From NCBI GenBank assembly GCA_035510575.1, contig DATKGV010000008.1, positions 4,618 to 68,617 of the forward strand: a stretch of 64,000 nucleotides of DNA, read 5' to 3'. This DNA comes from Minisyncoccota bacterium (GTDB lineage: Bacteria > Patescibacteriota > Minisyncoccia > Phycocordibacterales > UBA9973). Position numbers and translations under genes: made by a program. The first letter of the stretch is position 1. Every line of letters starts with the position of its first letter. Shown piece after piece: positions 6,278-62,464 of the stretch. Below the pieces are notes generated by a model. The model made no database searches. It was not told the origin of the DNA and saw only the letters and a list, made by a program, of their open reading frames with translations.

Positions 6278-7963
6278 CTAATAAACTTCTTGTTGATAAC
6301 ATTTTTCACAGTAAACAATTTCGGGTCTATCTGGTGCATAGCTTGTCTCAAATTCAACTTGGCATTTTCCTTCATGATTAGGATGCTTTTTATCGCACAT
6401 ACATTGCCTTTGCCAAAGTTTAGATGGTCCACGAAGTTTGAATCTATTTTCTAAACGACAAAAGAAACAATGCCTTGGTATTGGAATTTTCCATTTTTTA
6501 TAAAAATTTAATTCTTCATTTACTATTTTGTAATTTCTTTTGCAAATTAAACATTCAAGAATTTCATCTGTAATTGAATCTGATATATCGTTAATATTAT
6601 CTGAGACTTCAAAAAGAGTAGTTTTTCCTCTTGTTTGTTGAATATTATTCTGCCAACGAAACCCTTTTCTTAAAACATTTTCTTTTGAAAGTGGAAAGTA
6701 AAGCATCGCCATTGATTCATTATAAGCAAAAGAAGACATAGACATTGGGAAAAATTCTCCCCATTCCCCTGTTTTTTTCATATACTCTATAATTTTATTT
6801 TTAAGTTCAAAATATTCATCTTTTGTATATTCTTTATTAAAGATAGAATATTTACAATGCTTTAATCCCACACAACCAAAACATTCCTGACATGACATAC
6901 AAAAGTCAGAATAAAGAACATCCAAACTTTTCCAAACATAATTAACAAATAATGCTCGGGTTGAATGATCTGGAGTTATTCCTTCATAGCATTGTTCGAG
7001 TTCCCCGCCAACCGATAAATCATAGCTGTCTTTTTGGGTATCTCCATTTTCAATATATCTGCTATTTTCAAGTCTTCTAGTGTGAAAAGCATCTTTAGAA
7101 TTTTTACTATTTGCCAAATTATTTCCAGTGCAATTTAAACAATTATTGAAATTGGCATATTTTCTAGGCTGTTTTATAATAAATTCATTAAATTGTTTTT
7201 TAGCTTTTTCTACACCAGTCCAACTATCAAGCGAATAGTTAGCTATTATTTTTTCATATTCTTCTTTTACATATTGTTTATTTAAAATATTAAATTTTTT
7301 ATTTCGAAGTCCTACACACATAAAACAGTTACTGCATCCTCGGCAATCGTAACAAAAAATACAATTCACCAGTGTATTTGAATCTTGAATATATTTTGAA
7401 CCAAAACAATCCTGACTATACAGAGCTTCATAAAGACCTTCGCTTTTACTCATAATTCCCATACTATCCACAATATCTTTCGCATCAACTCCATATGCAA
7501 AATACATGCAATTTTCAATTTTCCAAGAAACTATTGTCATATAACAATCTTTACTGTAAACAACATCTTGAGTATATTCACAATTAGTACTGCCAATAGT
7601 ATTATCATTTACTAATGCCAAAGTAGGAATTTTCATGCGAAATTCATTAAATTGTTCAAAGAATGGTTTAGAAAAATCAAAACTCTGAGCGTATTTCTTT
7701 GGATCCCATATATCACCCCACCAACATTTATTGCAATAAATTATTTGTGGATTATCTGGAGAATAAATTGAAATTATATTTCTTTTGCATAAATCGCAAG
7801 TACGATTATAAAAAATAAATTCATTTCGCCATGAAAGTCTTCTTTGGCTTCTGCATTCTGGGCACCAAGTAGGTGCTGGAACCTTTATTTTCTCATAAAA
7901 AGAAAAGTCGTCTGGCTCAATTATAAAGTCTTTTTTGCAATTCTGGCAATTCCTAGTTTCCAT
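6278..7963 (-). CDS. cysteine-rich multi-zinc-ribbon protein of unknown function
   Basis: 561 aa with more than 40 Cys arranged as repeated CxxC pairs. N- and C-termini carry similar CxxC...FYxKxKxPxPxxCxxCR modules. The centre carries repeated C..C..C..C.GL modules. Confidence 0.5.
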   Translation of the reverse strand: METRNCQNCKKDFIIEPDDFSFYEKIKVPAPTWCPECRSQRRLSWRNEFIFYNRTCDLCKRNIISIYSPDNPQIIYCNKCWWGDIWDPKKYAQSFDFSKPFFEQFNEFRMKIPTLALVNDNTIGSTNCEYTQDVVYSKDCYMTIVSWKIENCMYFAYGVDAKDIVDSMGIMSKSEGLYEALYSQDCFGSKYIQDSNTLVNCIFCYDCRGCSNCFMCVGLRNKKFNILNKQYVKEEYEKIIANYSLDSWTGVEKAKKQFNEFIIKQPRKYANFNNCLNCTGNNLANSKNSKDAFHTRRLENSRYIENGDTQKDSYDLSVGGELEQCYEGITPDHSTRALFVNYVWKSLDVLYSDFCMSCQECFGCVGLKHCKYSIFNKEYTKDEYFELKNKIIEYMKKTGEWGEFFPMSMSSFAYNESMAMLYFPLSKENVLRKGFRWQNNIQQTRGKTTLFEVSDNINDISDSITDEILECLICKRNYKIVNEELNFYKKWKIPIPRHCFFCRLENRFKLRGPSKLWQRQCMCDKKHPNHEGKCQVEFETSYAPDRPEIVYCEKCYQQEVY

Positions 7964-8042
7964 AACACCATTATATCAAAGTATAAATAAAATACCTTAT
8001 AATCACTTTGAACGATCGTCTAATTAGGTTATAATAAGAAAT

Positions 8043-8525
8043 ATGAATATTATACAAGAAACACTGCATACTATTAGTAATTATCCTGGCGGATACAGGA
8101 TGATTTATGACTTAATATATAAAGAAAGGAATAAACCAAAGAATAATGGGCAAGTACTTAGAAATACATTATCAAAAATGAAAAAACGTGGATTACTTTC
8201 TAATGAAAAAGGTGTTTGGAAAATCACACCAGAAGGAAAGATTTTCTTAAAAAATGAGAATGTATCATTGATTAAATTTTCAGATTCAAAAAATAAAAAC
8301 AATAAACTTCCCAAAACAACGATGGTAGTTTTTGATATTCCTGAAAAGAAAAGGCTTTACCGTAACTGGCTTCGCAATGAACTTGTTGGCTTTGGATTTA
8401 CACTTATTCAAAAAAGTGTATGGTTTGGTCCAGCACTTCCAAAAGAATTTATATCTTATCTATCGGATCGTAAAATATTGGAATATGTAAGATTCTTTAA
8501 AGTTACAGAGAATGATCTAATTTAA
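8043..8525 (+). CDS. small putative DNA-binding protein, paralog A (wHTH-like N-terminus with a conserved 'DIPE..KR...R..L...F..IQKSVWFGP' C-terminal module)
   Basis: 160 aa. A clear paralog of the ORF at 33894-34394 shares 'V/LFDIPEKK', 'IQKSVW(F/V)GP' and 'LPKEFI(S/D)Y'. The C-terminal module is loosely reminiscent of Cas2/PaaX-type folds (tentative). Confidence 0.5.
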   Translation: MNIIQETLHTISNYPGGYRMIYDLIYKERNKPKNNGQVLRNTLSKMKKRGLLSNEKGVWKITPEGKIFLKNENVSLIKFSDSKNKNNKLPKTTMVVFDIPEKKRLYRNWLRNELVGFGFTLIQKSVWFGPALPKEFISYLSDRKILEYVRFFKVTENDLI

Positions 8526-8618
8526 ATTTATTAAATATGTTTATAACTTGTATAGACGATCGTCTGATTTGGTTATAAGTTATAATTATGATTTATATAA
8601 AGTATATTAAGAAAAATT

Positions 8619-9305
8619 TTATTTTATCACAGTCCCTATAAATTCCTTATTGTCAATATAGTTCTTGAGATTTTCCATGTTTCTGCCGTTTACAATGACA
8701 ACTTCAAGAGAAAGCGACTCGGCTTTCTCGGCTGCAATCGGGTCAAAAGGCGAACTTAATCCCGGATTCCATTCTTTGGGCAGCAGAGCGCGGAAATCTT
8801 TCCACGAACTTTCTTTTATCATTTTCGCGTCTGGATATATTTTGGGATCCTTGTCATAAGCATGATCAATGTTTGAAAGATTTATTATTCTTTTGACATT
8901 AAGCTGTTCGGCAATGACAACAGCGTCATAATCGCTGCTCCATCCCGGCTTCCATCCGGCGCCGATCATAATCGGCCTATCGGTCTCAGGAACTATGTTT
9001 GGGTCTATAATAATATCTGAATGCGCAAGAGAACCGAATATCAGGCGCATAAATTCCGCATTCAGGCGAGTCGCATAAATGCCGAGCCAATCAAGGGAAC
9101 TGGAAGAAGATTCTGAAACGTCGCTGAGCGCTTTTTGATAGCGCCTGCAGGTCTTGCCGCCGCCGGTAATAATAACAAAGTGATACCCTTTATTCACATA
9201 TTCTTTAATAGTCGAAACAAAAGATTTTAAAAAATCAGCATCTATCTGGTCTGGAACTATGAGCGAACCGCCGAGAGATATGACAATGTGTTCTTTTTTG
9301 TCCAT
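8619..9305 (-). CDS. pyrH: UMP kinase, archaeal-type amino-acid-kinase family
   Basis: 228 aa with 'VISLGGSLI' and 'VIITGGG' motifs of the carbamate/UMP kinase fold. Located next to adk. Confidence 0.6.
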   Translation of the reverse strand: MDKKEHIVISLGGSLIVPDQIDADFLKSFVSTIKEYVNKGYHFVIITGGGKTCRRYQKALSDVSESSSSSLDWLGIYATRLNAEFMRLIFGSLAHSDIIIDPNIVPETDRPIMIGAGWKPGWSSDYDAVVIAEQLNVKRIINLSNIDHAYDKDPKIYPDAKMIKESSWKDFRALLPKEWNPGLSSPFDPIAAEKAESLSLEVVIVNGRNMENLKNYIDNKEFIGTVIK

Positions 9306-20163: not shown

Positions 20164-20217
20164 ATATTTGTTCCATAGGTCGGACTTGTGGCTAGCCACA
20201 AGTCCGACCTATGGCCT

Positions 20218-22604: not shown

Positions 22605-22865
22605 TTATTTATAAATATCATGGTCGCCAACTCCCAATATAGCTGCTTTATTTTTATTTTCATATTGAAAAATAATTCGATAGGCATAATTAACTGAAAA
22701 ACCATAACAATTCTTATATTGGCCATTCAATTTATGAACTTTTAAAAGCTTATGATTCGAAATATTTTTAAACAGTTCAATTTTTTCTAAAACTTCTTCT
22801 TTCAAGTTATCATCTAATTTTCTAAAATTTCTAACAAAAATTGGAGCATAGATAATTTCAATCAT
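22605..22865 (-). CDS. type II toxin, RelE/ParE superfamily
   Basis: 86 aa. The C-terminal 'YRIIFQYENKNKAAILGVGDHDIYK' matches the RelE/ParE consensus (YRIIY...I..IGHRKDIY). Overlaps an upstream RHH gene by 1-2 nt. Confidence 0.6.
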   Translation of the reverse strand: MIEIIYAPIFVRNFRKLDDNLKEEVLEKIELFKNISNHKLLKVHKLNGQYKNCYGFSVNYAYRIIFQYENKNKAAILGVGDHDIYK

Positions 22866-22866
22866 A

Positions 22867-23088
22867 CTATTTGAATTTTTTAGCTAATTCCCTTAAATCT
22901 CCTGATAATCCCTTTCCCAGAGATATTTCTTTTTGAGCTATTAAAATCGCATTTACAGCTTCTTCTTCCGCAAGGCGGGTTATGGCGCGGCGAACGACAT
23001 CGGCTTTGTTCGAGCCATAGCCGGATTTTACCAGATTATTTAATTCCTTTTCTAATTGATAAGGCAATGGAACAGATATGGTAGTCAT
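22867..23088 (-). CDS. ribbon-helix-helix (CopG/ParD-like) antitoxin
   Basis: An 'MTTISVPLPYQLEKELNNLVKSGYGSNKADVVRRAI' RHH N-terminus. The ORF track start at 23121 runs into the operator palindrome, so the internal Met is the probable start. Confidence 0.55.
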   Translation of the reverse strand: MTTISVPLPYQLEKELNNLVKSGYGSNKADVVRRAITRLAEEEAVNAILIAQKEISLGKGLSGDLRELAKKFK

Positions 23089-23118
23089 AATATTTCTCAA
23101 TTTATTAAACTTATAATA

Positions 23119-23150
23119 CATATGATAATATCATATGATATTATCATATG
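23119..23150. promoter_or_regulatory. perfect 32-bp palindrome CATATGATAATATCATATGATATTATCATATG; candidate operator for the RHH antitoxin
   Basis: The sequence equals its own reverse complement and sits 30 bp upstream of the antitoxin start. Confidence 0.6.
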
Positions 23151-23210
23151 CAATAGCCCGGCAGTCCTAACCCATTCCGCATTTCTTGGTAATAAATATC
23201 AGCTTTCTAA

Positions 23211-23250
23211 CCACTAGCAAGAACCACTAGCAAGAACGGTTCTAGCTAGT
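23211..23250. repeat. REP-like palindromic repeat at the 3' side of the RAYT gene (one full 26-bp unit, 23225-23250, plus an upstream half unit)
   Basis: 'CCACTAGCAAGAAC|CACTAGCAAGAACGGTTCTAGCTAGT'. The unit forms a roughly 12-bp hairpin (ACTAGCAAGAAC / GTTCTAGCTAGT). Confidence 0.7.
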
Positions 23251-23928
23251 GGGTTCTATTATAAAATAATTCTCTATAAAATCTTTAAAAGATTGCTGTG
23301 ATTGGAAATAATCGGGAAATGCTTTTTTATTTAAAATATTACTTTCTATTCTGTCTGTGCCTATATAATCTTGATAACTGGAATATCTGTATGTTTCTAG
23401 AAAATCTTTCATTTCTTTATTATTTTTGTCTTTGTCTTTATCTTGTTTTTCCCAACCTGAAAACTTAATATCAAGTACATTTAGATGAATATATGCAAAA
23501 AGCTGCCGCATATAGTTATCATCTGCTTTTATACATTTTGATTTAAAGAGTCCGCCAAACAAAGCTCCTTGTCTTTGGTATTTTTTGTTAAAAAACATTG
23601 AATATCCTACACCTATCTTCCTCATGAACTTTGTTATTCCTCCATCTACTTCCTGCTTAACTAATATATGAAAATGATTATTCATAAGGCACCATGCGCC
23701 AATAGAAACTAGCGGCTCGCTTTTATTTAAGATCATTATTTCTTCATATCCCTTATGAAGAATATTTATTAAATTATCTAGTTTAATTGCTTCCTTATTA
23801 TTTGCAATATATAAAAGCATTTTAAATCTCTCGAAATCTCTTTCAAGCTTAAAAATGACTCTTTTATCTATACCCCTATTATAGATATGATAATATTCAC
23901 CGGTTATGAATGAATCTTTGCGAAGCAT
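23242..23928 (-). CDS. IS200/IS605-family Y1 (HUH) transposase, REP-associated tyrosine transposase (RAYT)-like
   Basis: 228 aa with 'YYHIYNRGIDKRVIF', HUH motif 'NHFHILV' and the catalytic-Tyr region 'AYIHLNV' (YIHxNP-type). Flanked on both sides by the same palindromic repeat. Confidence 0.65.
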   Translation of the reverse strand: MLRKDSFITGEYYHIYNRGIDKRVIFKLERDFERFKMLLYIANNKEAIKLDNLINILHKGYEEIMILNKSEPLVSIGAWCLMNNHFHILVKQEVDGGITKFMRKIGVGYSMFFNKKYQRQGALFGGLFKSKCIKADDNYMRQLFAYIHLNVLDIKFSGWEKQDKDKDKNNKEMKDFLETYRYSSYQDYIGTDRIESNILNKKAFPDYFQSQQSFKDFIENYFIIEPTS

Positions 23929-23954
23929 GTTTACAGTATAACAAACACCTTAGC

Positions 23955-24116
23955 CACTAGCAAGAACGGTTCTAGCTAGTCCCCAAGGCGGTTTTTATCT
24001 TATACACTAGCAAGAACGGTTCTAGCTAGTCTCGGCAATTCCAGCTACCCACTAGCAAGAACGGTTCTAGCTAGTCCTCACTATATATTACCTATAGCAA
24101 GAAAGGTCTAGCTAGT
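23955..24116. repeat. array of four REP-like 26-bp palindromic units (CACTAGCAAGAACGGTTCTAGCTAGT; the last is degenerate) separated by 19-24 nt unique spacers, at the 5' side of the RAYT gene
   Basis: Exact copies at 23955-23980, 24005-24030 and 24050-24075. Degenerate copy at 24095-24116. Confidence 0.7.
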
Positions 24117-24123
24117 CTCATCA

Positions 24124-24156
24124 AAAACCGCCCCATCAAACATAGGGGCGGTTTTT
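24124..24156. terminator. bidirectional Rho-independent terminator (AAAAACCGCCCC...GGGGCGGTTTTT)
   Basis: GC-rich 7-bp stem flanked by A-run and T-run. Followed by a second palindrome TAGCAAGGACCGTCCTTGCTA (24161-24181) related to the REP core. Confidence 0.6.
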
Positions 24157-24200
24157 GATTTAGCAAGGACCGTCCTTGCTAATCTGTAGCTTTAGCTTTT

Positions 24201-33082: not shown

Positions 33083-33094
33083 AATTACACATTA

Positions 33095-33122
33095 AAAAAT
33101 CCCTCAGTTGAGGGATTTTTTA
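33095..33122. terminator. bidirectional Rho-independent terminator AAAAAATCCCTC-AGTT-GAGGGATTTTTT
   Basis: Perfect 6-bp GC-containing stem flanked by A6/T6 runs, between convergent hppA and the 33138-33770 gene. Confidence 0.65.
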
Positions 33123-33137
33123 ATGCAAAGTTACAAA

Positions 33138-33770
33138 TTAAATCTTTTCATAACCAAGAAGACCATGAGTAGACTCACTAGTGTCTTTATTTATTATTTT
33201 ATTTTTTGCCCACTTCAACTCTTTTATATCAGAACCTACATTATTGGGATTAAAATCCCAATCACTCTCTTGATCATCAGAAACATTTTTATTTAAAAGT
33301 TCTTCAACTTTTTTAATTAATAACTTATCACTTATAGGTATTGTTTGTAATTTCATTAAAAGTTCATCATAAGCCATATTATTATCAAACTTTAAATCTT
33401 TTTTACCAATTTTTTCAGCATATCCAACAATATAATCAACTAATTGTTTGTCTTTCTTTAAATACCCTAATCTATGTTGAATATTATCAACCATTACACA
33501 AAAAGCGTTAAAAGAAAACATCTCAACATTAAATTTTTTATTAAGTTCATTTCGATATGATTTATCTTCTTGATCAAAACTCTTTCTTTCTTTTCCTGTT
33601 TCAAAAAATTTATCTGGGTCAACTTCTTTTAAAAATTCAAGTATTTTTTTCTTAGATCCTTCTTTTTGTAATCTAATTTCTTCTGGAGAAATACATTCAC
33701 TTATAATTTCTTTACTTAATTTATCAGAATCTTCAATTACTTCTTCCTTTTTATTTAATCCTTCATTCAT
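33138..33770 (-). CDS. acidic hypothetical protein
   Basis: 210 aa. No recognisable motif. Confidence 0.4.
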   Translation of the reverse strand: MNEGLNKKEEVIEDSDKLSKEIISECISPEEIRLQKEGSKKKILEFLKEVDPDKFFETGKERKSFDQEDKSYRNELNKKFNVEMFSFNAFCVMVDNIQHRLGYLKKDKQLVDYIVGYAEKIGKKDLKFDNNMAYDELLMKLQTIPISDKLLIKKVEELLNKNVSDDQESDWDFNPNNVGSDIKELKWAKNKIINKDTSESTHGLLGYEKI

Positions 33771-33893
33771 AAAATTTAGTTAATATTACTAATATGCCCA
33801 CATTCTACCCCCCCCCCAACGCATCTTGTCAATAAACTAGGTAACAATAATCTATTTCCACTGCCTTGCGCGATAGCGTAAAGTAATGGAAAG

Positions 33894-34394
33894 ATGTATA
33901 ATATAATTATGTCTTTAAAAAATGAAATTTTAGAAATATTGAATACTCCTAAATTTTACTATAAAGGAATTCCAATGAATGCCCTATTTTTACCTGCCCT
34001 AGACAGTTATAAACATAAAACAATTCAAAATAATTTTTATAATCTTAAAAAAGAAGGGTATATAGAAAAATCAAATGGAAAATTCATAATAAATAAAAAC
34101 GGTAAAAATTTTTTAGAAAAATCTAAAAAACCGCAATTAAAAATTTTCAAAAGTATGAAAAATAATAATCCTAAAAATCTGCTTCTACTTTATGATATTC
34201 CGGAAGATAAGAAAAAAGAGCGCGATTGGTTCCGCCGCACATTGATAAAATTTAGTTTTGTGATGATTCAAAAAAGTGTCTGGGTTGGGCCGTCTCCTTT
34301 ACCAAAAGAATTTATTGATTATACAAAATCAATAGGATTAAAAGATTCTATAAAAAGTTTCAAGTTGGAAAAAGGATATAATATACAAAAATAA
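33894..34394 (+). CDS. small putative DNA-binding protein, paralog B (same family as 8043-8525)
   Basis: Shares 'LLLYDIPEDKKKER..FRRTL..F.FVMIQKSVWVGPSPLPKEFIDY' with paralog A. Flanked by its own direct repeats. Confidence 0.5.
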   Translation: MYNIIMSLKNEILEILNTPKFYYKGIPMNALFLPALDSYKHKTIQNNFYNLKKEGYIEKSNGKFIINKNGKNFLEKSKKPQLKIFKSMKNNNPKNLLLLYDIPEDKKKERDWFRRTLIKFSFVMIQKSVWVGPSPLPKEFIDYTKSIGLKDSIKSFKLEKGYNIQK

Positions 34395-34493
34395 TTTCCA
34401 TTGTTGTACGCGATAGCGTAAGATAGTGGAAATTAAATAATTAATAATAATTAGTTTGAAAATAGTTTAATTTTAGTATAAGATGTAAAAATT

Positions 34494-35585
34494 ATGAAAA
34501 TAACAATAAAAAAGCTTGAAAAAAGCGAAGTGGAAATATTGGGCGTATTACCTGTGGCAGATTTTGAAAAGTATGAGGAGAAGGCTCTTAATATCATAAG
34601 TGAAAGAGTTGAATTGCCGGGCTTCAGAAAAGGTAAAGCTCCTATCGCAATGATAAAAGAAAATGTAAAAGAAATGGAATTATTGGAAGAAATGGCAGAA
34701 CAGGCGCTTTATGATAATTATCCAAAAATATTACAAGAGAATAAAATAGACGCTATCGGCCGACCACAAATCGCAATTACTAAAATTGCCAAGGGTTCCG
34801 ATTTGGAATTCAAAATATTAACGGCAGTATTGCCGGAGATAAAGCTTCCTGACTATAAAAAAATAGCTAAAGAAAAAAATAGTAGCAATGATTTCAAAAA
34901 AGAAATTGTAGTCGATGAAGCAATGGTTGAGAAAACAATTCTTGATTTACGCAAAATGCGAGCTGAGCAAGCACAACATAAGGATCATGAACATGTACCT
35001 GCCCGCCCTCACGATGTTTCGGGAGCAGGCGGGAAAGGAGAAACTCACGTTGAAATTCCTGAAAGCGAATATCCGGCGTTTGATGATGCTTTCGCCAAAA
35101 CATTCGGCGACTTTGCCAGCGCTGAGGCATTAAAAGAAAAAATTCGCGCCAATCTAAAAATTGAAAAAGAAACCGAGCAGAAAGACAAGCTTCGTCTTGC
35201 TATTGTTGAGGAACTTTTGAAACAATCAGAATGCGAAATTCCAGAAATTCTTATAGACAGCGAAGTTGAAAAGATTTTCTATCGTTTGGAAGCAGATATT
35301 ACAAATATGGGTTTCAAATTTGATGAATATTTAATTCAAATTAAGAAAACTGAAGAAGATTTGCGAAAAGAATGGCGACCTGAAGCAGAAAAGCGCGCCA
35401 AGCTTCAAATGATAATCCAGACAATTTCCGAAAAAGAAAATCTCAAAGCAACTGAAGAAGAAATTGAAAAGGAAGTGAATAACATCGTAACCATCTATAA
35501 GGATGCTGATCCAGCCCGCGCCCGCGCTTATGTGGAACAAATGCTTGAAAATGAAAAGGTCTTTGCATTTCTTGAGAAACAATAA
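34494..35585 (+). CDS. tig: trigger factor (short form)
   Basis: N-terminal ribosome-binding domain '[14 protein letters not shown]' and C-terminal chaperone arm. Immediately upstream of clpP as in many bacteria. Confidence 0.7.
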
Positions 35586-44230: not shown

Positions 44231-44324
44231 CCTCGCCCCCTGCTAAGGGGGAGATGCCGGAGGCAGAGGGGGTGCATTAATTAATTCACCCCTCCTCAAT
44301 CCTCCCCTTGTTAAGGGGAGGAGG
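44231..44324. repeat. GC-rich two-hairpin dispersed repeat element, copy B
   Basis: CCTCGCCCCCTGCTAAGGGGGAGATGCCGGAGGCAGAGGGGGTGCATTAATTAATTCACCCCTCCTCAATCCTCCCCTTGTTAAGGGGAGGAGG. Near-identical to 61463-61549. Confidence 0.8.
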
Positions 44325-52724: not shown

Positions 52725-52762
52725 CATAATAAAAAATATCGAACCATATGGTTCGATATTTT

Positions 52763-53038
52763 TTATGCTTTCTTCTTTATTACAGTTTTCTTTTTTGCGG
52801 TTACTTTTTTGGCTGAGTGGGGAGCATTGTCAAGAGTGATAAGCGGGGGATTGATGATGAGTTTCTCAGCAACTTTTTTCTTTTTTACAGTTTTCTTTTT
52901 TTTAACTGCTACTTTTTTAGTTACCGATTTTACGGCTGAAACAGCCGTACTGGATGAACTTGTTGCGGCAAAACTGCTTATTGGATAACCAACAAATAAA
53001 GATATAATTATTAATACTGGAATAATTTTTTTAATCAT
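52763..53038 (-). CDS. small secreted Lys-rich protein
   Basis: Signal peptide followed by a KKKxxVKKKK low-complexity region. Confidence 0.35.
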   Translation of the reverse strand: MIKKIIPVLIIISLFVGYPISSFAATSSSSTAVSAVKSVTKKVAVKKKKTVKKKKVAEKLIINPPLITLDNAPHSAKKVTAKKKTVIKKKA

Positions 53039-61462: not shown

Positions 61463-61549
61463 CCTCGCCCCCTGCTAAGGGGGAGATGCCGGAGGCAGAG
61501 GGGGTGCATTAATTCACCCCTCCTCAATCCTCCCCTTGGCAGGGGAGGA
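61463..61549. repeat. GC-rich two-hairpin dispersed repeat element, copy C
   Basis: Greater than 90% identical to copy B. Located in the uvrD-rsmA spacer. Confidence 0.8.
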
Positions 61550-61585
61550 AAAACTCAATTTTTGAATAAATGCTAATATACAAAT

Positions 61586-62464
61586 ATGATTTATCATGCG
61601 AAAAAATCTCTCAGCCAAAATTTTCTAAAATCAAAACCGGCGCTTGAAATGATGATCAAAGCGGGCGAGGTTGATGACAATGATATTATTTTGGAAATCG
61701 GTCCCGGCAAAGGCGCCTTAACAAGCAAGCTTCTGGAAAAAGCGAAAAAAGTAATCGCCGTTGAGAAAGATAGCAGCTTGATCAGAATGCTTGAAGAAAA
61801 ATTCAAGAATGAAATAAAAAATAAAAAACTTATTTTAATAAATGAGGATATCTTAAAGTTTAAATTCCCCCTCCCCTTTACAAGGGGAGGGCTGGGGAGG
61901 GGTGAATTGATAGACCCCCTCTGCCCTTCGGGCATCTCCCCCTTATCAAGGGGGAGAGGGATTAATGAGTACAAAATAATAGCCAATATTCCTTACAATA
62001 TTACCGGCGCAATCATAAAAAAATTTCTCTCCGGAGAAAATCAGCCGTCGGTTATGATCCTGCTTGTGCAAAAAGAAGTGGCAGACAGAATTACTGCTAG
62101 AAGTAACAAAGAAAGCATTTTATCGCTCAGCGTCAAAGCTTATGGAACGCCGAAATATGTGATGAAAGTTGGAAAAAGATTCTTCTCGCCCAGCCCTAAA
62201 GTGGATTCAGCCATTATATCGATAAAAGATATCTCCAGAAAAAATTTCAAGACGCCGAGTGAAGAAGAGCAATTCTTCAAAATAATCAAGAGCGCTTTCG
62301 CGCACAAGCGAAAAGTTCTCCGCAAGAACTTGGAAGAGGTGGCATCGCTTGAAACTATTGATTTTATGTTTGCAAAATTAGGAATAAATCAAAAAATCAG
62401 AGCTGAAGATGTGCCATTTACGCAGTGGCTCTCGATAAGCAGATATTTATCAGAAAATGCCTAG
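61586..62464 (+). CDS. rsmA: 16S rRNA (adenine1518/1519-N6)-dimethyltransferase RsmA/KsgA, carrying an in-frame ~108-bp repeat-element insertion
   Basis: 'GQNFLKSKPALEMMIKAG...EIGPGKGALT' SAM-binding region and C-terminal RsmA domain. The segment 'LPFTRGGLGRGELIDPLCPSGISPLSRGRGINE' is encoded by an inverted copy of the GC-rich element seen at 44231 and 61463. Confidence 0.75.
   Translation: MIYHAKKSLSQNFLKSKPALEMMIKAGEVDDNDIILEIGPGKGALTSKLLEKAKKVIAVEKDSSLIRMLEEKFKNEIKNKKLILINEDILKFKFPLPFTRGGLGRGELIDPLCPSGISPLSRGRGINEYKIIANIPYNITGAIIKKFLSGENQPSVMILLVQKEVADRITARSNKESILSLSVKAYGTPKYVMKVGKRFFSPSPKVDSAIISIKDISRKNFKTPSEEEQFFKIIKSAFAHKRKVLRKNLEEVASLETIDFMFAKLGINQKIRAEDVPFTQWLSISRYLSENA
61865..61972. 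repeat. GC-rich repeat element, inverted copy D inserted in-frame inside rsmA
   Basis: The reverse complement aligns to copies B and C along its whole length with a few substitutions and a 4-nt indel. Confidence 0.75.

Follow-up and report, generated by a model that had tools for sequence, protein, structure and literature searches.

Short PaaX-like genes of Patescibacteria are bracketed by pairs of cognate palindromic sites: a candidate autoregulator with a duplicated operator

PaaX is a phenylacetyl-CoA-responsive repressor of the paa catabolon. Looping repressors such as lambda CI (OL/OR around cI-rexAB), GalR, LacI, and DeoR have operators on both sides of, or distant from, the gene. Patescibacteria have tiny genomes; to our knowledge, no regulator has been experimentally characterised in these bacteria, and we know of no transcription-factor family in which operator duplication on both sides is a family-wide property. 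Here we describe two genes, A and B, in a 64,000-nucleotide stretch of a Minisyncoccota bacterium (contig DATKGV010000008.1, positions 4,618 to 68,617; hereafter the window), which encode short PaaX-like proteins ("mini-PaaX") and are each enclosed by a pair of 38-bp palindromic sites. In Escherichia coli, PaaX recognises TGATTC-N27-GAATCA and represses its own promoter, Px, by steric hindrance (PMC9493321). Our best reading is that the two genes belong to a family of PaaX-type autoregulators whose genes are each flanked by two co-evolving copies of the operator, and we found no earlier description of this family. To the whole of this reading, in which a self-repressing dimer would occupy two flanking operators that bracket the transcription unit, we assign a probability of about 0.6.

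The two genes and their sites are as follows (positions are those of the window).

8043..8525, plus strand: gene A, open reading frame (ORF) of 160 amino acids (aa), match to Pfam PaaX_M (1.8e-13)
33909..34394, plus strand: gene B, 161 aa, paralog of gene A, match to Pfam PaaX_M (1e-13)
7997..8034, no strand: site A1, upstream 38-bp dyad, TTATAATCACTTTGAACGATCGTCTAATTAGGTTATAA, within the 79-bp divergent intergenic region 5' of gene A
8541..8578, no strand: site A2, downstream copy, TTATAACTTGTATAGACGATCGTCTGATTTGGTTATAA, in the convergent interval from the stop codon of gene A (8525) to that of an amino-acid-kinase gene (8619)
33855..33892, no strand: site B1, upstream copy, TTTCCACTGCCTTGCGCGATAGCGTAAAGTAATGGAAA, in a divergent intergenic region, with a TATAAT box 4 nt after its end
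34395..34432, no strand: site B2, downstream copy, TTTCCATTGTTGTACGCGATAGCGTAAGATAGTGGAAA, beginning right after the stop codon of gene B

Site A has the pattern TTATAA-N9-ACGATCGT-N9-TTATAA, which occurs exactly at A1 and A2, and site B has the pattern TTTCCAYTG-N5-CGCGATAGCGTAA-N2-TARTGGAAA, which occurs at B1 and B2; shuffled sequences are expected to contain neither. No further match to site A or to site B was found in the window when up to three mismatches were allowed, and relaxed searches of the window for A-type, B-type, or generic extra sites found none. Both pairs were also recovered by an unbiased repeat finder, with start-to-start distances of 544 bp for A (repeat family D13) and 540 bp for B (D11). 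The first-pass annotation of the window had proposed two pairs of flanking sites, each specific to its gene; pattern searches and the repeat finder bear this out, with A2 placed 7 bp further left and B1 ca. 9 bp further right than in that annotation. It had also described every site as dyad-symmetric. This holds for arms and core, in which 13–15 of 20 positions pair, and is weak for the spacers of site A. The end of site B2 is 61 bp from the start codon of the trigger-factor gene.

The proteins encoded by genes A and B showed 35% identity over 119 residues (E = 5e-19, BLASTP), which confirms that they are paralogs, and the C-terminal motif reported as common to both is present in A, B, and the family alignments. 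tblastn detected no third paralog in the 64-kb window. The ORF of gene B also has an in-frame ATG at 33894, which had been taken as the start. The N-terminus of the family aligns with the ATG at 33909 (MSLKNEILEIL...), and this alignment indicates that gene B most likely starts at 33909, not at 33894.

Both proteins match Pfam PaaX_M (PF20803), a central Cas2-like domain, with 50.8 and 51.6 bits (cutoff 24). Gene B also exceeds the cutoffs of Pfam CRISPR_Cas2 (29.1 bits; cutoff 23.8) and the TIGR Cas2 model of NCBIfam (28.8 bits; cutoff 24.5), and gene A falls just below both (23.2 and 22.1 bits). The NCBIfam PaaX model TIGR02277 gave only 13.5 and 20.6 bits, far below its cutoff of 264.55, with coverage limited to model positions 33–133 of 279. 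The N-terminal halves weakly match HTH_45, Mrr_N, PadR, and S19e, and the Pfam PaaX N-terminal model matches neither A nor B. PADLOC hits were to winged-helix profiles associated with type III-A systems in the N-terminal part and to Cas2 profiles in the C-terminal part. The AlphaFold model of the gene A protein (pLDDT, the predicted local distance difference test, 75) consists of a winged helix at residues ca. 3–61 (helices 3–12, 18–26, and 36–48; strands 52–55 and 58–61), a helix at 63–72, a low-confidence linker at 73–92, and a beta-alpha-beta-beta-alpha-beta domain at 93–159. The top PDB matches of this model in Foldseek were Cas2 chains, PaaX of E. coli (8a39), and Rv0674 (3kfw). The protein ends ca. 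20 residues beyond the Cas2-fold domain and lacks the C-terminal effector domain of PaaX. Pfam PaaX_M, the AlphaFold model, and Foldseek all agree with the earlier guess of a winged helix followed by a Cas2/PaaX-type fold. We conclude that A and B are PaaX-like proteins reduced to a winged helix and a Cas2-fold domain.

PaaX (8a39; Rv0674, 3kfw) and mini-PaaX share the PaaX_M domain and the winged helix before it, and the predicted operators of mini-PaaX are analogous in geometry to that of PaaX, with short inverted half-sites and a long spacer. However, mini-PaaX has 160 aa instead of ca. 300 aa and no PaaX_C, and no paa (phenylacetate catabolism) genes were found beside either module. The predicted operators also differ from that of PaaX in having a CGATCG-type core, a shorter spacer (ca. 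20–24 bp vs N27), and a second copy on the other side of the gene. A further difference is that a genome can carry many diverged mini-PaaX paralogs. With Cas2, A and B share the beta-alpha-beta-beta-alpha-beta fold, the motifs 'FDIP...R..LR..L...GF..IQKSVW', and the position of the N-terminal Asp. Unlike Cas2, they are fused to a winged helix and are not accompanied by a CRISPR array: neither cas1 nor other cas genes were found next to gene A or B, and the window has at least 60 direct-repeat families, the 20 largest of which include no array-like repeats. The repeats themselves are two diverged copies 540 bp apart, and the ca. 500-bp "spacer" between them contains the gene. A CRISPR-like mini-array was rejected on these grounds. 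Lrp/AsnC proteins appeared as weak full-length Foldseek matches (Lrp structures, Foldseek probability 0.2), but they have no sequence relationship with A and B, which contain no RAM domain.

All 16 aligned members of the family have Asp-98 of the 'FDIPE' motif. In a profile alignment, the family sequence 'vvFDiPE..R.WlR.eL...gf.liQKSVW' pairs with the 'RVIVFFDLP..FRKYLIKSGFIMQQKSVY' of solved Cas2. The Asp of the N-terminal 'FFDLP' motif of Cas2 is the one which we take to be metal-binding, and by this alignment Asp-98 of the family sits at the Cas2 metal-binding position. The family alignment contains no invariant His or Tyr and no HUH/Tyr or DDE-type motif, and neither gene A nor gene B matches Pfam Y1_Tnp.

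A word-indexed database search returned 70 homologs, all with PF20803, and an exhaustive profile search returned 1,930 clusters at 50% identity (E ≤ 1e-10), the best 150 of which are all short (88–230 aa, mostly 150–200 aa). In a species-genome collection, 367 loci were confirmed, and 80 of these were taken, 79 of them usable. All 80 come from metagenome-assembled genomes of candidate phyla (Patescibacteria/Paceibacteria-type); those labelled to phylum belong to Paceibacterota, Zambryskibacteria, Jorgensenbacteria, Wolfebacteria, Liptonbacteria, Vogelbacteria, and others, and the rest carry generic labels only. Several genomes contain more than one paralog. Mini-PaaX is a large family and appears to be specific to Patescibacteria. 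We found no description of the family or its flanking sites in the literature searched on PaaX, Cas2, or winged helix with Patescibacteria, candidate phyla radiation (CPR), or Parcubacteria, in which only a review of the PaaX operator came up.

At each locus, the 150 bp upstream of the start codon and the 150 bp downstream of the stop codon were compared with each other. In most of the 79 loci, no shuffle equalled the best ungapped 38-mer match. Once a second, motif-based criterion was added, a flanking pair was present in at least 69 of the 79, and most of the other ten show one by eye. Whether further relatives carry cognate repeats, as the first-pass annotation had asked, is thus answered by at least 69 loci that carry them on both sides. 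The arrangement spans protein identities of 33–77% and many candidate phyla. This recurrence and the zero matches expected in shuffled sequences rule out a chance or low-complexity repeat. The sites share one plan, namely an outer arm at positions 11–17 from the centre, a spacer of ca. 6–7 bp, a core that is usually (A/G)CGATCG(T/C), and the mirror image of these. Across the family, half-sites follow the consensus TTAACA-TTTT-NN-RCGA; 77% of them have C at position 12. The arms measure 6–7 bp and are separated by ca. 20–24 bp. They are paralog-specific (e.g., TTATAAC, TTTCCA, GTATAC, TATATCA, or GTTAACA) and differ between paralogs of one genome, yet they are alike in both copies around one gene. 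Sites A and B are ordinary members of the family; the core of site B, CGATAG, also occurs in a few relatives.

Concerted change of the two copies was evaluated in 49 pairs of related modules with 55–98% protein identity. Arm identity was 0.90 between the copies of one module and 0.68 between corresponding sites of related modules (37 pairs vs 3). In the ortholog series formed by the window and two other loci (L001 and L002), TTATAACC is replaced by TGTAACC as the arm of all four half-sites. In these comparisons, the two copies of a module evolve in concert. The divergence of the arms correlated with that of residues 34–62 (recognition helix and wing) when the Cas2-fold domain was controlled (partial r 0.21, 0 of 1000 permutations), and the divergence of the inner spacer correlated with that of the Cas2-fold domain when the winged helix was controlled (partial r 0.21, 0 of 1000 label permutations). 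The cross terms in these partial correlations (arm with Cas2 fold, inner spacer with winged helix) were not significant. Columns 40 and 42–45 of the recognition helix were among the most arm-informative. From these sequence comparisons, each protein very probably binds the sites flanking its own gene, as double-stranded DNA.

Alternatively, the palindromes could act at the RNA level by forming hairpins at both ends (5' and 3') of the family mRNA, which would serve as terminators, stabilisers, or processing sites; the Cas2-like domain, whose ferredoxin-like fold resembles an RNA-recognition motif, might bind them. Many sites are indeed perfect or near-perfect palindromes of 34–40 nt, and some differences between copies are compensatory within each copy. 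Self-complementarity was 92% in the arms, 89% in the cores, and 66% in the inner spacers, against 38% for inner spacers of unrelated modules. However, dyad mismatches compatible with G:U pairing were about equally frequent on the plus and minus strands (107 vs 101), which gives no signal of a strand-specific RNA fold. Pairing of inner spacers across the two sites of a module (0.60) was nearly equal to that within a site (0.66), suggesting that most of the symmetry is a shared two-fold consensus. Sites B1 and B2 fold well (B2, −10.9 kcal/mol, z = −6.7), but A1 (−1.4 kcal/mol) folds no better than shuffled sequence and A2 (−3.4 kcal/mol) folds weakly, with no GC-rich stem and T-tract; hairpin formation is therefore not a constant feature. 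No Rfam match was found at the sites. The upstream copy also overlaps the −35 and −10 elements described below, so it would mostly not be transcribed from the promoter of the gene. The mismatch test, the folding energies, cross-site pairing, and Rfam thus disfavour an RNA structure, and we regard this explanation as very unlikely.

The upstream copies overlap predicted promoters. The promoter of gene A is as follows.

8008..8035, plus strand: predicted sigma-70-type promoter of gene A, −35 TTGAAC (8008–8013), 16-nt spacer, −10 TATAAT (8030–8035), 10/12 in a consensus scan

Its −35 and −10 elements lie almost wholly inside site A1. With 7 nt between the end of the −10 and the ATG, the mRNA is predicted to be leaderless. 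The TATAAT box of gene B (33897–33902) ends 6 nt before the ATG. Among 62 modules, a −10-like hexamer ending 7–10 nt before the ATG was present in 24 and a Shine-Dalgarno-like core in one. The centre of the upstream site was most commonly 25–30 nt before the ATG in these modules, a distance at which its right arm coincides with the −10. These positions support leaderless transcripts as the predicted mode of expression, and autorepression by promoter occlusion is probable. Since the upstream copies in the window lie in divergent regions, they cannot terminate an upstream gene.

Two features were noted beside these promoters. The minus-strand gene divergent to gene A, which encodes a Zn-ribbon protein, has a TATAAT-like box (GATATAAT, 7963–7976) that ends 6 nt before its ATG, so that this organism may commonly produce leaderless mRNAs; both divergent leaderless promoters lie in the 79-bp region containing site A1. 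In the divergent promoter region between gene B and the minus-strand gene at 33138–33770, a run of ten C (33808–33817) lies 38 bp before site B1 and could be a slippage-prone tract.

In most modules, the centre of the downstream copy lies 17–48 bp past the stop codon. The orientation of modules relative to their neighbours is random, with a divergent upstream neighbour in 29 of 60 modules and a convergent downstream neighbour in 24 of 54. With so many convergent neighbours, a general role of the downstream copy as operator of the following gene is rejected; site A2, located between convergent stop codons, can serve no promoter. No intrinsic terminator was predicted in 7700–8900 or 33600–34700. 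An intrinsic terminator was rejected as the nature of the sites, which contain no GC-rich stem with T-tract and, in A1 and A2, fold weakly. Hairpins with a GC stem and T-tract occur elsewhere in the window (e.g., 24121–24158 and 33089–33126). The downstream copy could cooperate with the upstream copy through a loop of ca. 540 bp. Alternatively, when bound, it could act as a barrier against transcription leaving the gene or entering it antisense; for gene A, the barrier would face read-through from the convergent secY-adk-kinase operon. Like the modules, looping repressors have their gene enclosed by two cognate operators that lie hundreds of bp from each other, one of them covering the promoter. 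They differ in that here the pair hugs a single 0.5-kb gene throughout the family and no oligomerisation domain beyond the dimer is evident. A role of the downstream copy as loop partner or transcription barrier is suggested with much lower confidence than binding and autorepression.

Sites away from family genes were sought in metagenome contigs scanned for the commonest class, TTAACA-N7-CGATCG-N7-TGTTAA, which gave at least 120 site-anchored loci, with genes called crudely as the longest ORFs. Among the matches listed, there were 139 sites, of which 47 stood beside a family gene, 42 were too near a contig end, and 50 were solo; a relaxed detector gave similar proportions on the same listed loci. 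In contrast, gene-anchored loci contained only ca. three solo sites in 450 kb, and the window contained none. Occurrence of the repeats at unrelated loci, which the first-pass annotation had raised against its own idea, was thus found for TTAACA-class sites in other genomes, whereas sites A and B do not recur in the window and solo sites are rare near family genes. Half of the listed solo sites are within ca. 50 bp of a stop codon, with a cluster at ca. 12–53 bp after stops; convergent regions are represented at ca. 2-fold the background and divergent regions are depleted. These sites at gene ends predict that at least the TTAACA-class proteins have extra genomic targets, which look like gene-end elements rather than promoter operators.

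Individual cases illustrate the range of these sites. Examples of solo sites far from any family gene are L098:3123-3154, L163:4633-4664, and L157:728-759; as a group, solo sites are enriched between convergent housekeeping genes (aminoacyl-tRNA synthetases, gyrA, prfB, and typA). At L038:2849-2977, two palindromes of the same CGATCG-core class lie 90 bp apart with no gene between them, and at L192:4178-4503, three classes occur within 300 bp of a divergent intergenic region. Some modules have a third copy of the site (L105 and L170); in L105:7523-8470, this copy has the sequence of the upstream site and lies 185 bp beyond the downstream site. We rejected the idea that solo sites are relics of decayed modules: only three of 57 have a family-like coding remnant within 800 bp, and two of these three are additional copies next to an intact module.

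A simple autorepressor model leaves the solo sites unexplained, and this keeps two other explanations alive. In one, the proteins are roadblock or termination factors, or anchors of topological domains, at the 3' ends of genes, and the copies around their own genes are a self-application. The placement of solo sites after stop codons and in convergent regions fits such boundary elements, as do the similar placement of the downstream copy of the modules and the lack of a predicted intrinsic terminator beside either module of the window. On the other hand, the sites are nearly confined to family genes in the window and in the gene-anchored loci, the genome has ordinary hairpins with GC stem and T-tract elsewhere, and the data on solo sites come from one arm class in site-anchored loci with crude gene calls. 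We consider this explanation unlikely.

In the other explanation, the module is a selfish cassette of ca. 600 bp, comparable to a transposon or to the repetitive extragenic palindromes (REPs) and their REP-associated tyrosine transposases (RAYTs). The 38-bp palindromes would be the ends of the cassette, the Cas2-fold domain with its conserved Asp would nick or cut at the CGATCG core and so move or copy the unit, and the solo palindromes would be non-autonomous derivatives. A gene hugged by two cognate palindromes and oriented at random to its neighbours fits this architecture, for which the window itself holds a precedent:

23212-24107 (gene 23242-23928, minus strand): RAYT/REP example, IS200-like Y1 transposase, Y1_Tnp 7e-07

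Its REP-like palindromes, CACTAGCAAGAACGGTTCTAGCTAGT, are in a classic RAYT/REP arrangement, with one at 23221-23255, three at 23951-24080, and a degenerate fourth at 24079-24107. Like REP/RAYT systems, the modules combine a small gene with cognate palindromes, have class-specific repeats, and in some genomes have solo copies at 3' ends, as is also seen for REPs and miniature inverted-repeat transposable elements; the solo site of L132 differs little from the sites of module L111, which is on the same contig. Unlike these systems, the module protein is not of the Y1/HUH type, the sites have a very low copy number, hairpins are optional, with no stable hairpin at site A, and the modules are old and syntenic. 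The scarcity of solo sites near family genes, their absence from the window, and the lack of gene remnants also count against derivatives of a cassette, while the invariance of the Asp at the Cas2 position would suit one.

The history of the modules bears on this question. Synteny is kept in many ortholog groups despite flanks with only 65–75% nucleotide identity. In 69 syntenic comparisons, the module had the same orientation in 65, was exactly inverted in one, and was absent in three, which represent two independent cases. In the first case, the module of L045 lies between the EF-G and EF-Tu genes, and L142 has a plain 190-bp intergenic region without a site; in the second (L013 vs L151), the whole unit is gone and no site is left. 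The inversion (L033:2901-3553 vs L031:2893-3570) was found between two Jorgensenbacteria genomes with conserved flanking genes, in which the module proteins are 44% and the flanking proteins 55–70% identical. Gene and both repeats can thus be present or absent as one unit, which the first-pass annotation had proposed to check, although rarely. Its idea of a mobile or recombination cassette is weakly supported by the whole-unit absences and the inversion, but not by the deep synteny, the lack of near-identical copies, and the lack of viral relatives. Paralogs within a genome are only 38–64% identical, so there are no recent copies. No relatives were found in a search that covered viral contigs, as opposed to phage and plasmid BLAST collections, and target-site duplications were not seen by eye in the aligned flanks, which were not tested systematically. 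The near-identical copies and variable insertion sites of insertion sequences were not observed for the modules. Deep synteny and the absence of near-identical copies disfavour active transposition. Mini-PaaX modules are an old resident family that is gained or lost rarely as whole units, not an active element, and a selfish cassette with solo sites as its non-autonomous derivatives seems quite improbable to us.

The one module-exact inversion and the two whole-unit absences would also be expected if a site-specific recombinase (Xer-like, integron-like, or unknown) used the palindromes to excise, insert, or flip the gene. The right arm 'ATGTTAA' is, we presume, superficially like the XerD-side arm of dif/pdif sites. 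Sites of tyrosine recombinases have a central region of 6–8 bp. The arms here are 20–24 bp apart, unlike in Xer/dif or integron attC sites, and they differ for each paralog and covary with the encoded winged helix instead of being shared as for a common recombinase. No recombinase gene was linked to the examined modules, and orientation was kept in 65 of the 66 syntenic comparisons with a module on both sides. A recombination cassette or invertible switch is therefore a highly improbable explanation.

More broadly, the modules may be a new kind of self-contained unit, in which a Cas2-fold dimer with winged helices recognises a ca. 38-bp repeat at gene ends, as a mobile cassette or a boundary system. 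In the first version, they may be, now or in the past, a minimal mobile or selfish cassette whose Cas2-type Asp acts on the CGATCG core and from which the solo palindromes are derived. In the second, they may be a boundary system, programmed by proteins, by which transcription-unit ends are marked in the reduced genomes of Patescibacteria. We hold this view to be doubtful.

The reading that we prefer remains a self-repressing dimer on two flanking operators. Each paralog would bind as a dimer to its own 38-bp two-fold-symmetric site. The two winged helices would read the gene-specific outer arms at positions 11–17 from the centre, ca. 28 bp apart, and the Cas2-fold dimer would lie over the inner spacer and the CGATCG-type core, i.e., the central ca. 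20 bp. In Cas1-Cas2 complexes, the Cas2 dimer lies along ca. 23 bp of duplex DNA, which is about the inner length of these sites. The upstream site would cover the promoter of the leaderless mRNA, so that the protein would repress itself, and with the second, co-evolving site past the stop codon, the transcription unit would be bracketed by protein-bound sites. The anatomy of the modules, their conservation, the concerted evolution of the sites, the covariation with the protein, and the overlap with the promoter were observed directly; we infer binding, repression, and the role of the downstream site from them.

Several points weigh against this reading. The invariance of Asp-98 is one, as a pure dimerisation role would not need an Asp at the catalytic position of Cas2. 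No sensor domain is recognisable in the proteins, and the purpose of a purely self-regulating loop is hard to see. The listed solo sites are in convergent regions in 21, tandem in 26, and divergent regions in four cases (background, 78, 235, and 63), and classical promoter operators would not sit at gene ends. Helical phasing of the site-to-site spacing was only weak (Rayleigh p 0.01–0.05, uncorrected), and a loop is therefore not specifically supported. Pairing was in small excess within sites (27 modules vs 11), which hints at some hairpin or cruciform effect or at a palindrome-correcting mutation process. Finally, the Mantel-type permutations leave some phylogenetic non-independence in the covariation tests.

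In the window, the neighbours of the two modules are the genes for the Zn-ribbon protein, the amino-acid kinase, and trigger factor, and adk, secY, and clpP. Site A2 lies between gene A and the last gene of the convergent rplO-secY-adk-kinase operon. Orthologs of gene A with 76–77% identity occupy the same place beside pyrH-like, adk, and secY genes in two other genomes, one of which has a different upstream neighbour. The homologous loci in other genomes are single-gene modules.

Other palindromes and repeats were noted in the window. At 22605-23153, a HigB/ParE-like toxin gene (22605-22865, minus strand) has a small partner gene upstream (22867-23121), and a 38-bp AT-rich palindrome, ATACATATGATAATATCATATGATATTATCATATGCAA (23116-23153), over the start region of the two genes is probably their operator. 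Two perfect 38-bp palindromes are unrelated to sites A and B: ATAGGTCGGACTTGTGGCTAGCCACAAGTCCGACCTAT (20175-20212) lies between two minus-strand genes, and ATAAAAAATATCGAACCATATGGTTCGATATTTTTTAT (52729-52766) lies between convergent genes and looks like a bidirectional terminator. A short GC-rich hairpin-like repeat, CCCCCTGCTAAGGGGGAGA (family D5), is present in four copies as two pairs 17 kb apart (44236-44322 and 61468-61957).

On the preferred reading, every member of the family comes with a predicted DNA motif, a rule that assigns domains to subsites, and a model of a leaderless promoter. Dozens of matched protein-site pairs make protein-DNA recognition in uncultivated bacteria testable in vitro. 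That a Cas2-fold domain apparently recognises the inner 20 bp of a palindromic repeat bears on the origin of repeat handling in the Cas2 family. If the cassette or boundary version were true, this would be the first sequence-specific repeat recognition by a Cas2-family protein outside CRISPR and a candidate for the kind of ancestor from which repeat handling in CRISPR adaptation arose. The duplication of an operator around a one-gene unit may show by what means genes in compact genomes are shielded from transcription nearby.

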